A stretch of DNA of 64,000 nt from an uncultured Bacilli bacterium (GTDB lineage: Bacteria > Bacillota_I > Bacilli_A > RF39 > UBA660): contig CAKOUW010000001.1 of NCBI GenBank assembly GCA_934120715.1, positions 390,599 to 454,598 of the forward strand, read 5' to 3'. The position numbers were made by a program. Positions 27,001-36,000 of this stretch are shown here, piece after piece (position 1 is the stretch's first letter; the number at the start of each line of letters is the position of its first letter).

Positions 27001-30000
27001 TCTAAAAGTAAGATATCAGCATCACTTATAATTATAGAGGCAAAGGCTATAATAGATTTTTCTCCACCTGATAAGGTATTAAATTTTCTATTTAAGAGTT
27101 CTTTATTTATCTTAAAACCTTTTATTACTTTTTCTACTTTAGCATCTATTTCATAACCTGACATATTGATAAAATCTGTTTGAAGATTAGAATATCTTAT
27201 TATTAACTTTTCAATATTATCAACACTAGCATTAGTTATTTTTTCTTCATATTTATCTAGTTCTTTTTTTAAAGCAATTATATCTTTAATACCACTATAT
27301 AAAACATCTTTTACTGTTGTTTTGTCATCTTGATCTTCAACTATCTGTTTTAAATAACCTATTTTAGCATTTTTTCTTATTGATACAGTACCAGAGTCTG
27401 AATTAATTAAACCTGATACTATGTTTAGGATTGTTGACTTTCCTGAGCCATTTTCACCTACTAGGGCTATCCTTTCATTTGTTTTTACTTCAAAACTTAT
27501 ATTATTAAATACTTTATCAAAACCAAAACTTTTGGTTAATTTATTTATTCCTATTTCTATCATAAAATTCTCCTTAAAAAATAATAAAAGCTATACATCT
27601 GTATAGCTATAGCTTTTATACAGATGTAGGCACGACTAAAAGATCACACCTACATCTAATATTTTTAAGTTTAGATGTGAGGTGTGATAAATAATGTATA
27701 CATGATTACATTATTAACATGTTTATACATATTATCACGTCCTTCTTTCAAAAAAATTATAGCGTTATTTTAAAGAAATGTCAATTCTTGGAGGAATGTT
27801 ATCGCTAATTTGTTTTGTGATTATTCTAATAAAAGTCTTACAGTACCTCTATCTTCTAGTTTTGTATTAGCATCAGGAGACTGGGATACTACGGTTTCTC
27901 CAGTACCAGTATATTCTATGGTAAAGTTTGATAAAAGTTTTTTAGCTTCTTTTACGTTCATTCCTACAACATTTGGTACTTCATATGTTATTTTATCTGT
28001 CCATTCTAGATCTTTTTCTAACTCGTTGGGTTGTTTTTCTATATCTAGGGCTTCGATTATATCAAGTAGGATTCTTCTAGCAATTGGGGTTGTAGTATAA
28101 CTTGATAGAAGGGCTGTGTTTTTTGGATTATCAATAGCTAGATATAAAACTACTTCTGGATCATTTGATGGAACTACAGCCATAAATGACATTATGTAAT
28201 TACCTACTAAATATTTGCCATCTTTTACTTTTTGAGCAGTACCGGTTTTACCACCTATTCTATAACCTTCAATATAGGCTGATTTTCCTCCTCCTTTAGC
28301 AACAACACTTTCTAGAGCTCTTCTCATAATCTGAGATGTTTCACTGCTTATTACTTTTCTAACTAGAGTCTTTTTATTTTCTTTAACTATAGTGTTTACT
28401 TCTCCTTCTGAGATGTTTTTTACAATGTATGGTTTATACAAGTAACCACCATTAACAACTGCTGATACGGCTGTTACTTGTTGTATAGGAGTTACACTTA
28501 CTCCTTGACCAATTGGAGTCTATATAGGGTAACTCAAAGTTAAAATTTTTGCCACTATTATAAACTACTTTTTTACTAGAATTATCAAAATTAAATATTA
28601 TATTTAACTCTACATGCTTTCTATCATTATTAATTTTTCTCACATATACCTTCTTAATTAATAAATCAAATAAGTCTTTAAAACTATTATCTATATCTAT
28701 TTTCTTATCTAATATTTCTTTTATTTTATTTAATTTTTTTAGATATTTATTTTCCTTTAAATTAGATACTTCTAATTCTTTAATTAATTCATTATTACTT
28801 TTCAATTCTTTGTTATAGTTTTCATTTTTTTCTTTAAATTCAATATTACTAATATATCCATCTAAATTAAGTTCTAATAATTTATTTTTTAAATTTACTA
28901 TTCTTTTATTTTTCTCTTTTAACTCTAATAATTTATCTTTTTCACTATTTTCTTCTAATATCTTTTTATAATCTTCTAATATTATATTTAAAAGTTCTTC
29001 TTTATTAGTTAAAAAGTTACTTATAATTTTTTTGAATATTATATCTAAATGCTTTTCAAATAATGTAGGAGTATTACAAGCTTTGAGTCCACCTTTATGA
29101 TACTCTAGGCATTGCCATACAGGGTTACTATATCTTTTACCACATCCATGTCTACCAAAGTTACACTGATGCTCTACACACTCTAATTTACCTGTATAAG
29201 TATATTTATTATCATATACATTTTTTTTACCTCTTATATAACCATACTCTTTACTTTTAGCATTAAATATTTTGTTTGCTACATCCCATATTTCTTCTGA
29301 TACTATAGCAGGTATATTTTCATCTTTATAAATTATCCATTCTTCTTTTGGTCTATATATTTTCTTATGAGTTTTGTAATCTTCTATATAACTAATATTT
29401 CCACAGTAATATCCTTTATATTTTGGATTAGTAAGCATTCTTCTAAGAACTCTATCTGCATATGGTTTTCCTTTAGTATTTTTATATCCTTCTTCATAAA
29501 GTTTTTGTCCTATCGTTTTAAAACCATATTTACCAGTAGCATATAAACTAAATAACATTCTAATTATAGGGGCCTCATCTTCATTTATATAAAGTCTTCC
29601 TTTTTCTTTATAGTATCCTGTTATATTTCCACCACCTAATACTTTACCATCTTTAACACTTCTGTCTAATCCAAATTTAACACGACTAGATAATTTTCTA
29701 ACTTCATCTTGAGCTAGGCTAGACATTATAGTTAATCTAAATTCACAAGTTTCATCTAATGTATTTAAATTATCATTTAAAAAATTAACTACAACTCCAT
29801 TCTTTAATAAATAATCTGTGTATTTAATCGAATCAATTGTATTACGGGCAAATCGAGATACTTCTTTAGTTATAATCATATCGAACTTACCACTTATAGC
29901 ATCTTCAATCATTCTTAAAAAACTTTTTCGTTTAGCTACCCCTGTTGCACTTATTCCTTCATCAATATATTTACCTACTAACTTCCAAGACTTACTATTA

Positions 30001-33000: not shown

Positions 33001-36000
33001 TGGATGTATTTCATTTTCTTTAGCATTTAAAAATTTAAATAAACTTTTCATTAATGCTGGAACTAATATTGATTCAGGAGCAGTATAAATAATTTCATTT
33101 TTCTTTTTTATCGCTTCACCATGGTTTCTATAATAACCATTATCATCTTCAAAATACTTCATTAAAAGTGTGTGTGCTTTTAAAAAATCATCTTCATTTT
33201 TCCAATCATATTCATCCATATTTTCATATAATTCATTAGCGTTTTTTACTTCTTGTATTTCATTTCTATCTCCAAGTACTAGTTTATCATCAATAATTCT
33301 TTCAACTGAATTTAATGATAAAGAATTAGCTTCTATAGCAAGAGAGGAATAAATAGATCTTACTTTAGATTTAATTTGTAAATTTCTTTTTTTTATTATT
33401 ATCATTTAAAACTATTAAAGATAGTTTCTGTTCTATTTCTTTAATAATTTTTTTATTTTCATCACTAATATGAAATATTGGTTCTATAGTATCTATATTT
33501 TTCATTTTGACCTCCTTTTTATCAGACTAAATCTATTAGTATTATACTACAATTAATCTTATATTTACTAAGAAAAAAGGTAAATCTTATGAGCTCTTAA
33601 TGATACTTTTTATTTTATCTTACCTATTTTTTAGATGGATCTAGTGTAAATATAAAAGTCCCACTTAGTAGACACTTACACCAAAGGCTGTTGTGGAGAG
33701 TTCAACATTACCAACTTTATCTAGAGGAAATATAATTCCTTGACCTTCACCATTTAAATCAATTCCTGTTTTTTCACCAAAACCAAATTTATCTATATAA
33801 CTAAATAATCTTTCTTTACCTAGCATTTGCCCTATCTTCACGAATCCAGGATTGCATGAGTTCTGCAGAACCTGAAGGAAGGTTTGATCTCCGTGTCCTC
33901 CTGCTTTCCAACATTTTAAAACGGACCCATCTACATTTACGCTTCCTGAATCATAAAAATGGTCTTTATCTAAATCTACAATCTTTTCTTCTACAGCAGT
34001 TGCCATTGTTACTACTTTAAAAGTTGAACCTGGTTCATATGATGAAAAGATGGGCAAGTTTCTGCTTAGAACTTCTTGAGAGAATTTTTGATAATTATTA
34101 GGATCATATCCAGGCCTTGAACCCATTCCTAAAATTTCTCCTGTTTTAGGATCCATAGCGATTGCTAGAGCCATGTCTGGAGAAAACATGTCTACAATAT
34201 TATCTAATTCTCTTTCTATTGATTTTTGAATATTTATATCTATAGTTAGAGTTATATTCATACCTGATTGTGGTTCTACATAAATATCTGATAAATTAAG
34301 TTTATTTCCTTTAGCATCAGAAAAATATTTAATGGCTCCACTCTTTCCAGTCAAATATTTATCATATTGTAACTCTAATCCTGATAGACCTTGATTATCA
34401 ATACCAACGTAGCCTAGGGTATGTGATAAAAGATTTTTGTAAGGATAATACCTTTTAGCTTCTTTTACTAAATATATTCCATCCATTTCAAGAGATGATA
34501 TTTTCTCAGCTGTTTCATATGATAATCTTCTTCCTTCAGGATGGACTCTTTCTATTGATGTTTTTTTATAAACATGTTTTTTCATTTCTTTTTCTTCTAC
34601 TTTTAATATTTTAGCAAGTTCTTTAGTTGCTTTTTCCTTATCCTTTATTTGATTAGGAATTAAAATAAGCGAAGTTGTTGTTAAATTGTCAGCTAGAACA
34701 ACACCATTTCTATCTAATATTAAACCTCTATTTGCTTCTATTGGTAGATCTCTACTCCATAGATTTGATGCATAACTATTTAACTTCTTATAATCAAATA
34801 TTTGAATGTAGAAAACTCTTAAAATTATAAAAATAAATAAGAGAAGCATTACTAAAAAAGTCACTTTAATTCGTTCATCTATTTTTTTAAAAAACATAAT
34901 TCACCTCTAATAAAGGTGTATGCTTACTAATAAAAAAAAGACTAAAAGTTATTGCAACAATACGTTAATTAAGTTTATTTTTAGTAAATAGTTTTGGATA
35001 AACAAAAAACGTATAATTTTTGTTATACGCTTTTTGTTTAGGTATTTAATCATTTATACTACCAATTGTATTATTAAATATTTTTTACTTTTGATAAGAA
35101 GTTTTTAACTCTAATATCTTGTGGATTATTGAATATTTCTTCTGGAGTATTATCTTCTATTATTTTGCCTTCATCCATAAAAATAACTCTGGTAGAGAAG
35201 TTTTTAATAAAGTTCATTTCATGTGATACAACTAACATTGTCATACCGTCTTTAGCAATTTCTCTCATTAAATTAGTAACTTCTCCAATCATTTCTGGAT
35301 CAAGAGCAGATGTAGGTTCATCAAATAACATTAATTCTGGTTTCATTATAAGAGCCCTTATAATGGCAATTCTTTGCTTTTGACCGCCAGATAATTCTCT
35401 TGGATAATAATTCTTTTTATCTTCTAGATCAATTTTCTTTAGAAGTTTTGTAGCTTCTTTTATGGCATCTTTTCTTGTTAATAGGCCTAGTTTTACAGGA
35501 GATAAAATAATGTTTTCTAAAACAGTCATATTTTCAAAGAGATTAAATTGTTGAAAGACCATCCCTATTTTTCTTCTAATACCAGTAATATTACTATTTA
35601 AATTTATAGTTTCATTTTCAAAAGTAATAGTACCTGAAGTTGGTACTTCTAAAAAATTAATGGTTCTTAAAAAAGTAGATTTACCACATCCTGATGGTCC
35701 AATGATACCTATTATTTCTCCTTTATCTACTTTTAGATTTATACCTTTTAGGACTTTTTTCTGACCAAAATTTTTAACTAAATTCTTAACTTCTAACATT
35801 ATTTAACCTCTTTTCCATTAGGTTTATTAATCTAGCTAGACCATAAGTAATAATTAAATAAATTAGGGCTATTAATATTAATGGGAAGAAATAGTCATAT
35901 GTTCTTGAAGCTATAATATCACTAGCTTTTGTTAATTCTATTATACCTATATAGGCTCCAACTGATGTTTCCTTTACTAAAGTTATAAATTCATTACCTA

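Follow-up and report, generated by a model that had tools for sequence, protein, structure and literature searches.

A cell-wall transpeptidase gene that is cut in two by a mobile element raises the question of whether the gene is simply lost or is rebuilt when the cell needs it. We addressed this question in a 64,000-nucleotide stretch of DNA from an uncultured Bacilli bacterium (contig CAKOUW010000001.1 of assembly GCA_934120715.1, positions 390,599 to 454,598; hereafter the window). We found that a 5,172-bp element cuts the gene of a SpoVD-type class B penicillin-binding protein (PBP), and that precise removal of the element restores the open reading frame (ORF). On comparative grounds we consider it probable, if well short of certain, that the element represents a new family of skin- and SPβ-like gene-intervening elements targeting spoVD, and that it would be excised, at a stage proposed below, to rebuild the gene.

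Structure and identity of the split gene

The two gene segments and the element occupy the following positions:

33681..34897, minus strand: 5′ segment of the spoVD-like class B PBP gene, codons 1-406, with the transmembrane helix, the PBP_dimer domain and the part of the transpeptidase that holds STFK and SCN
28509..33680, minus strand: integrated element, 5,172 bp, G+C content 24.2%, no phage structural genes
27821..28508, minus strand: 3′ segment of the spoVD-like gene, codons 407-634, with the remaining transpeptidase including KTG, one PASTA domain and the stop codon

With the element present, the N-terminal ORF spans 33665..34897 on the minus strand, reading through into the element to a stop at 33665 and encoding 410 aa that end in STTAFGVSVY; the PBP frame is open again from 28519 to 27821 on the same strand. 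ORF calling thus recovered both boundaries as the original prediction had given them. Pfam matched the N-terminal part to PBP_dimer and to positions 2-160 of the 299-position Transpeptidase profile, and the C-terminal part to positions 156-298 of the same profile and one PASTA domain. Because these profile positions abut, the two parts are adjoining pieces of one domain. Joining 34897..33681 to 28508..27821 in silico gave an in-frame protein of 634 aa, with STFK at residue 291, SCN at 347, FGQG at 405 and the catalytic KTG at 493. These motif positions place the insertion between SxN and KTG, so that SxxK and SxN are parted from KTG on opposite sides of the element, as had been claimed, and the protein is truncated.

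The search for an uninterrupted orthologue that had been proposed as a means to define attB was run against 5.8 billion proteins, and uninterrupted 634-aa homologues were found (gut metagenomes). The best of them, P0001, is identical to the rebuilt protein at 632 of 634 residues, the differences being K99N and I306V, and its gene loci, in other metagenomes, are syntenic with the window on both sides. A chimeric assembly, or two unrelated PBP fragments brought close to a recombinase by chance, would explain the arrangement trivially, and sequence derived from metagenomes carries such a risk in general. However, the halves abut on the Pfam profile and the rebuilt protein is nearly identical to intact syntenic alleles. 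Furthermore, the element, with an identical 54-aa ORF, sits in the same split gene with the same junctions on at least 21 contigs from many independent samples, cohorts and assemblers, which argues against an assembly artefact so strongly that we set this explanation aside as vanishingly improbable.

Scored against TIGR02214, the NCBIfam equivalog model of SpoVD, the rebuilt protein reached 713.6 bits over residues 13-632 (cutoff 688), and it fell far under the cutoff of each of the PBP2/MrdA, FtsI, PBP2X and PBP2B models. Together with the Pfam domains, this score bears out the proposed assignment to a SpoVD/PBP2B-like class B PBP with PASTA, the PASTA domain being single. The surroundings of the gene are as follows:

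51845..52294: mraZ, upstream of the second class B PBP gene
50916..51848: rsmH, adjoining the second class B PBP gene
48434..50584, minus strand: second class B PBP gene, intact and PBP2X/2B-like, encoding 716 aa with two PASTA domains, immediately after mraZ and rsmH
23343..24332, minus strand: mraY, downstream of the split gene
22175..23359, minus strand: SEDS gene, above the FtsW cutoff and just under the SpoVE cutoff, downstream of the split gene

The gene order in the window is mraZ-rsmH-class B PBP (716 aa)...split class B PBP...mraY-SEDS, and in relatives the split gene stands directly before mraY-SEDS-murG-murB-divIB-ftsA-ftsZ. The layout in Bacillus subtilis is pbpB / spoVD...mraY...spoVE, and since the locus matches it, the split gene is the paralogue in the SpoVD position and not the division one. 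An uninterrupted second copy of the split gene was looked for as a point against the original prediction; the second class B PBP in the window is only 30% identical to it. A second SEDS gene at the end of the window was considered as a further split gene and rejected, as it merely runs off the window.

The nearest genomes are uncultured 'Bacilli bacterium' metagenome-assembled genomes, 'Mycoplasma sp. CAG:877' (87%) and Candidatus Faecimonas intestinavium (82%). The GTDB genus CAG-877 corresponds to Candidatus Faecimonas, in the order RF39 and family CAG-611 (PMC8035907). All nearest genomes belong to RF39 / CAG-611, which rules out Clostridium as the host; judged by these relatives, the host is an uncultured RF39 human-gut bacterium, CAG-877/Faecimonas-like.

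Crossover site, recombinase and small partner ORF

The element is bounded by two attachment sites:

33655..33710, minus strand: attL, host arm ...ACAACAGCCTTT, crossover GG at 33682-33681, element arm TGTAAGTGTCTACTAAGTGGGAC...
28480..28540, minus strand: attR, element arm ...CCCTATATAGACTCCAATT, crossover GG at 28510-28509, host arm TCAAGGAGTAAGTGTAACTCC...

Across the junction, intact alleles read GCCTTTGGT/CAAGGAGTAAGTGT (a slash marks the junction), or over a longer stretch ...ACAGCCTTTGGT/CAAGGAGTAAGTGTAACTCC..., while the window reads ...GCCTTTGG/TGTAAGTGTCTACTAAG... at attL and ...GACTCCAATTGG/TCAAGGAGTAAGTG... at attR. The rebuilt junction, attB, is ...ACAGCCTTTGGTCAAGGAGTAAG..., and the predicted junction of the excised element, attP, is ...TATAGACTCCAATTGGTGTAAGTGTCTAC...; the attB of intact alleles equals the left arm of attL, GG and the right arm of attR. 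The junction sequence in the intact alleles makes TTGGT the true overlap. Across six related elements inserted at the same place, within the F-G-Q-G codons (site A), GG is the sole invariant overlap, and in five further family elements the 10 nt past GAC in the element arm hold the register. We take GG as the putative crossover dinucleotide. The arms are conserved even where the cargo of the elements is unrelated, and the predicted attP shows weak dyad symmetry, with 14 of 30 positions symmetric, TAGAC/GTCTA among them.

A shared 8-bp core, GTAAGTGT, had been named in the original prediction. The sequence is indeed present at 33679..33672 and 28501..28494, but the TTGGT overlap of the intact alleles shows that it is not the crossover, one copy lying in the element arm and the other in the host arm, 6 bp out of register. 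Recombination at GTAAGTGT would be in frame but would delete Gln-Gly, and all intact alleles keep CAAGGA; it was therefore rejected.

ORF and domain searches confirmed a serine-recombinase element, with no transposase, between the halves. Its G+C content compares with 31.2% for the spoVD segments and 28.4% for the whole window, and it holds six ORFs: a large serine recombinase (LSR), the 54-aa ORF, a 254-aa ORF, a Fic gene in two pieces and a RhuM-family gene. The recombination module consists of the following features:

28452..30164, minus strand: LSR, 570 aa from GTG, motif YARVST, 3′ end overlapping attR
30239..30259, minus strand: terminator-like hairpin and T-run between the small ORF and the LSR gene
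30248..30412, minus strand: 54-aa ORF immediately upstream of the LSR, TATAAT 7 nt before its ATG

The LSR start is taken at GTG, while gene callers choose an ATG 12 codons downstream. The protein matched the Resolvase domain PF00239 (101.6 bits), the Recombinase domain PF07508 (67.3 bits) and the integrase PHROG 95 (351 bits), which was the only match with a phage function in a PHROGs scan of the element. Its catalytic motif, R-V-S-T, is invariant among 8 members of the LSR family, in which conserved Cys residues are also present; the zinc ribbon PF13408 scored 18.6 bits on the window LSR, under its cutoff of 25.3, and this domain is recorded for many close homologues. A coiled-coil-like stretch at residues 385-534 is hinted at by a match to LmuB alone, and the LSR scored 88 bits against the XisF model, under the cutoff of 375. 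Contrary to an earlier claim, the recombinase ORF does not lie 50 bp from the element end: in the integrated state it crosses attR, and its last ~18 codons are host PBP DNA (28452..28510). In the excised form the C-terminus would differ at the same length of 570 aa. The host-derived tail looks incidental, because the LSR genes of two related loci, L087 and L088, have their stop ~25 nt before the crossover.

A homologous ORF of 43-64 aa stands directly before the LSR in every related element, at all three insertion sites in spoVD and in the dacB-like case described below. Its identities to the window ORF (89, 72, 73, 53, 49, 37 and 23%) parallel those of the LSRs (92, 85, 82, 66, 62, 51 and 45%). 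We found no match for the small ORF in Pfam, NCBIfam, PADLOC or PHROG, and its family profile matched no PDB sequence. AlphaFold gave a confident helical hairpin (predicted local distance difference test, pLDDT, 90) for which no significant fold match was obtained. Because of its position, its size and its co-divergence with the LSR, the small ORF is the best candidate for a recombination directionality factor (RDF) or a regulator. The terminator-like hairpin between it and the LSR is also present in L088. A sporulation promoter on the LSR module was considered as evidence and dropped, since the box is TATAAT in the window, L087, L088 and L090 but CATA in L092.

Recurrence, promoter context and selection

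In every neighbourhood of an LSR homologue that we opened, from 92% to 45% identity, the LSR lies directly upstream of the C-terminal fragment of a spoVD-like gene, with varying cargo. Five of these loci are:

L090: LSR 92% identical to that of the window
L087: LSR 85% identical, 6.4-kb island with an ABC transporter
L088: LSR 82% identical, element of >10 kb
L091: LSR 66% identical
L092: LSR 62% identical, prophage-like, with holin, endolysin and a tail-fibre-like gene

The family inserts at three sites in the one gene, namely site A at FGQG, site B at SCN and site C at STFK. The six site-A loci differ in cargo and host, and separate LSR clades are found at the other two: 580-aa LSRs of 51% identity within the SCN codons of site B (L094/L095), of which one variant alone is indexed in 102 collection blocks, and a 509-aa LSR of 45% identity at the STFK lysine codon of site C (L108/L110/L111). 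Among the best 120 homologues of a site-B C-fragment (70-99% identity), all 120 are partial and none is full length; 116 of the 120 measure 277-353 aa and the other 4 measure 411-492 aa, and their start classes match sites B and C. All 36 of the partial fragments that were checked by sequence keep KTGT and the other conserved blocks.

At site C, the ORF of the C-fragment often starts M-V-S/G-T-F-K-I. Since the element end mimics SxxK in this way, the site-C fragment encodes every transpeptidase motif, at least formally, but lacks the membrane anchor and the pedestal domain.

LSR similarity does not track host similarity: LSRs 80-92% identical occur in hosts whose PBP fragments are 59-68% identical, and hosts 83% identical carry LSRs that are 45% identical at different sites. 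Elements thus move between hosts. Close phage relatives of the LSR were absent from a single-protein IMG/VR scan, and INPHARED phages reached at most 44% identity.

Two IMG/VR contigs, L114 (1607..8323) and L113, carry LSRs of 44-45% identity, each with a homologous small ORF. Their target is a class C PBP gene (D-Ala-D-Ala carboxypeptidase, Peptidase_S11) that is cut at two places by two tandem elements, the LSR of the second being frameshifted. This dacB-like gene is followed by a Gate-domain (SpmA/SpmB-type) gene in a dacB-spmA-like arrangement; in B. subtilis, dacB and spmA/spmB form a cortex operon. It is the second PBP gene with a link to the cortex among the targets of this module family.

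Upstream of the split gene we found a sequence with possible bearing on when the gene is expressed:

34917..34922, minus strand: CATACA box 25 nt upstream of the start codon, candidate -10 of a mother-cell sigma factor (sigmaE/sigmaK type)

A -10 led by CATA is the hallmark of B. subtilis sigmaE (CATACA-T) and sigmaK (CATA---TA) promoters. Of 69 orthologues, 62 have CATA at -29..-22 relative to the start codon, compared with 40 of 720 other ORFs of the same loci; the -35 region is ill-defined. The box also occurs upstream of a CotE homologue (PF10628, 154 bits) in L065. A GerA homologue (501 bits) was found in a related locus, and the CotE and GerA genes of relatives lie at most 10 kb from the spoVD-like gene. 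A CATA box shared with the neighbouring SEDS gene was considered and dropped, as the window lacks the C and has TATAAT as the box of that gene.

RF39 is predicted to be spore-forming, with spoVD reduced or absent and with sporulation and peptidoglycan genes being lost (PMC10868615). Loci L007-L112 include many RF39-type genomes in which the spoVD-like gene is intact or split in two ORFs, and the reported absence of spoVD may in part be an annotation artefact of split genes.

Two further features were seen around the start of the gene. A hairpin at 34902..34918, in which the Shine-Dalgarno AGGTG pairs with an upstream CACCT, is weak in the window (5 bp), while in L061, L063, L068, L082 and L085 a 10-bp palindrome, AGACTTACCT-AGAG-AGGTGAGTCT, lies at the spoVD-like start and overlaps the CATA box; the Shine-Dalgarno hairpin could act as an operator or serve to control translation. 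In L049, L064, L065 and L067, TCGACAAA / TTCGACA motifs occur ~45-55 nt before the start. This observation is anecdotal; the TTCGACA-type motif is what we take to be the reverse complement of the Spo0A box TGTCGAA.

The genes sigK, spsM, spoVFB, spoVR, gerE and yabG are known to harbour intervening elements that the mother cell excises. Under the reading that we prefer, the LSR would integrate attP into attB at GG, and the insertion would be harmless in growth, the split gene being the sporulation paralogue and the division-type class B PBP being intact; it would be tolerated because spoVD is presumably not needed in growth. A directionality factor, for which the small ORF is the candidate, would then switch the LSR to excision, and recombination of attL with attR would restore spoVD. 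As with skin, SPbeta, vfbin, vrin, gin and yin, the most likely place of excision is the mother cell during its terminal differentiation, and the forespore chromosome, that is the germ line, would keep the element. A stronger version holds that in RF39, a major uncultured lineage in human and animal guts, the rebuilding of spoVD by programmed excision is a regular and, in some clades, obligatory step of sporulation, run by an LSR and helical-hairpin RDF module that has radiated onto the three catalytic-motif sites of spoVD and onto dacB; this version is tentative, and we rate its chances as somewhat below even.

Alternatively, the insertion may be a plain knock-out, in which conserved PBP motif DNA merely serves as attB, SpoVD and with it cortex or sporulation is lost, the loss is tolerated or favoured in a reductive gut lineage, and excision serves transfer only. 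The state of the gene halves bears on this explanation. No frameshift or stop was found in them at any examined locus, and a 19-bp insertion in the C-fragment of L105, considered as a sign of decay, was rejected as a run-of-N scaffolding gap. Between the window and L096, both of which carry the element, the two halves differ by 49 synonymous and 4 nonsynonymous changes, a ratio of nonsynonymous to synonymous rates (dN/dS) of ~0.02; between the window and L097 the changes are 51 and 5. The neighbouring ABC ATPase gene has a dN/dS of 0.05-0.14 and the LSR one of 0.12-0.30, so the LSR is also under constraint. The split halves are thus under strong purifying selection, which is supportive of a rebuilt gene but not decisive. 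In L096 the element (~97-98% identical) is about as diverged as the host flanks, and since the divergences are similar, co-inheritance of element and host fits this locus. A knock-out is also hard to reconcile with the dozens of diverged C-fragments (70-99%) whose frames are full and whose catalytic motifs are preserved, the closest 120 including no intact allele, and it would make the use of three spoVD sites and a dacB-like gene by one LSR family a chance choice of conserved DNA, which is unlikely.

Other observations weigh against programmed excision, and several of them speak for the knock-out. Intact alleles (~17 contigs) and split alleles (at least 21) occur side by side in the same species group; the element is polymorphic within the species and horizontally mobile. 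In L097 and L103 the element is 99.2% identical while the host flanks are 94-97% identical; because the element outmatches its flanks, its spread there appears later or recent, and part of the purifying-selection signal may therefore predate the insertion. The check for the excised junction that had been proposed in the original prediction came back empty, degenerate attP patterns for sites A and B having no match in IMG/VR or JGI metagenome contigs, collections that may lack the host. No CATA-type sporulation promoter is evident in the window upstream of either the LSR or the small ORF, the box of the latter is of the TATAAT type, and the LSR lies behind a terminator. Cargo of a defence-like kind (SoFic, PDC-S05) is typical of selfish islands, and RF39 is reported with reduced or absent spoVD while losing sporulation and peptidoglycan genes (PMC10868615). 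Moreover, the host is uncultured and its sporulation is a prediction, and the two class B PBPs visible in the 64-kb window leave room for a vegetative role of the split one, for instance in elongation. Taking both sides together, we judge a plain knock-out unlikely, yet serious enough to be kept in mind.

The presence of two class B PBPs, in a lineage that has lost most PBPs, also bears on a further explanation, in which the split PBP acts in growth and reversible excision toggles cell shape, wall state or beta-lactam susceptibility, comparable to active lysogeny or phase variation. The small ORF and the LSR apparently stand under a housekeeping-type TATAAT box, which would suit such a vegetative switch, and phage-controlled morphology is known in B. 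subtilis (PMC12361552). The rebuilt protein, however, passes the SpoVD equivalog cutoff and falls far under those of PBP2/MrdA and FtsI, and the conserved promoter box of the gene is of the CATA type, not TATAAT/TTGACA. Related LSRs, in addition, target the dacB-like gene beside the Gate-domain gene, an arrangement that forms a cortex operon in B. subtilis. A vegetative switch is accordingly improbable in our estimate.

Comparable elements, cargo and neighbouring features

The analogy to skin-type elements drawn in the original prediction gained strength from the SpoVD cutoff, the intact division paralogue, the targeting of three sites, the purifying selection and the CATA box. As in the present family, skin elements in sigK (B. 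subtilis, SpoIVCA; Clostridioides difficile skinCd, LSR CD1231) are of very different size and content and share only the recombination module. Excision of skinCd requires a small element-encoded RDF, the 72-aa CD1234 (PMC5025042; bioRxiv 10.1101/2022.02.25.481979). The present target, in contrast, is spoVD, for a cortex transpeptidase instead of a sigma factor, the host belongs to an uncultured RF39 lineage, and the family has three attB sites in one gene and a conserved small ORF that always adjoins the LSR; excision is a prediction here.

SPbeta in B. subtilis (SprA/SprB) is likewise an LSR element that interrupts a mother-cell gene, spsM (PMC4191935, PMC5499854). Because some members of the present family are prophage-like (L092), excision could serve both induction and gene repair. 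Unlike SPbeta, the window element measures 5.2 kb and has no phage genes, and its LSR is only distantly related. The gin element in gerE of Bacillus cereus (GirC/GirX) resembles it as a non-phage element that combines defence-type cargo with a serine recombinase and an accessory factor (PMC5595907), whereas gin is 28.6 kb long with three recombinases and its excision in sporulation has been shown experimentally, neither of which applies to the window element. The heterocyst elements in nifD, fdxN and hupL (XisF-type) offer a parallel, being excised in a programmed way from genes that only a terminally differentiated cell requires; they differ in phylum, cell type and target, and the window LSR falls outside the XisF equivalog.

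Mageeney et al. 2020 (PMC7192596) recognise candidate regulated gene integrity where two or more elements that inserted independently, and whose integrases form a tight clade, interrupt a given domain at an identical position. The site-A elements show this pattern and so resemble the candidate clades of that study. Its text and searched supplements mention no PBP, transpeptidase or spoVD target. A literature search also gave no report of a split spoVD or PBP gene, in line with the original view that a split PBP was undescribed, and within the literature searched a PBP has not been reported before as the target of a gene-intervening element.

What stands out among such elements is the use of three sites in one gene, the dacB-like target, the universal small ORF and the setting in an uncultured gut order with reduced genomes. 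This is not a single case, as the whole recombinase family hits spoVD across many RF39-type species. If the programmed-excision reading is true, cortex peptidoglycan synthesis would be gated by a genome rearrangement. Developmental excision would also provide independent evidence for sporulation in RF39, with bearing on transmission between hosts, and would explain why spoVD looks missing in RF39 surveys. If the insertion is a knock-out only, the family would instead exemplify how mobile elements can, by a specific route, wear down sporulation in gut-adapted Firmicutes. For use as tools, it provides site-specific integrases whose attB/attP pairs are defined, together with a candidate for the cognate RDF.

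The cargo of the window element consists of the following features:

32943..33505, minus strand: 5′ part of a SoFic-like Fic gene, with a frameshift in an A-run and an interruption between HPFSD and GNGR
31785..32942, minus strand: nested 1,158-bp cassette with a RhuM-family ORF at 31814..32830
31356..31784, minus strand: Fic gene, 3′ part, GNGR... and a winged-helix domain
30457..31221, minus strand: 254-aa ORF, weakly kinase-like (Pfam FTA2, sub-cutoff; PADLOC PD-T4-6, E=0.0023)

The Fic protein scored 139 bits against the SoFic defence model, and the RhuM protein 489 bits against the PADLOC model of the candidate defence system PDC-S05. The RhuM cassette is a single gene without a recombinase, bounded by inverted repeats of 8 bp at its ends (GAGGATGA/TCATCCTC) and by a duplicated GAT(G) target, and it sits exactly in the Fic catalytic motif HPFSD/GNGR. 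In addition, the A-run at 33389..33410 has eight A in the window and seven in L096, a +1 frameshift. The frameshift and the cassette make Fic, the main cargo gene of the element, a pseudogene in the window strain. L096 carries the same element with an intact 328-aa Fic and without the cassette, and in L097 the cassette is partly deleted.

Elsewhere in the window, two giant ORFs (827 and 1,095 aa) at 7942..13864 have an N-terminal prepilin-type methylation motif, PF07963, as their only feature. These pseudopilin-like ORFs, of a size unusual in a reduced genome, are found near comEC/comEA-like genes (59223..61974) and LPXTG pilin-like proteins (42023..42532, 44863..46452).

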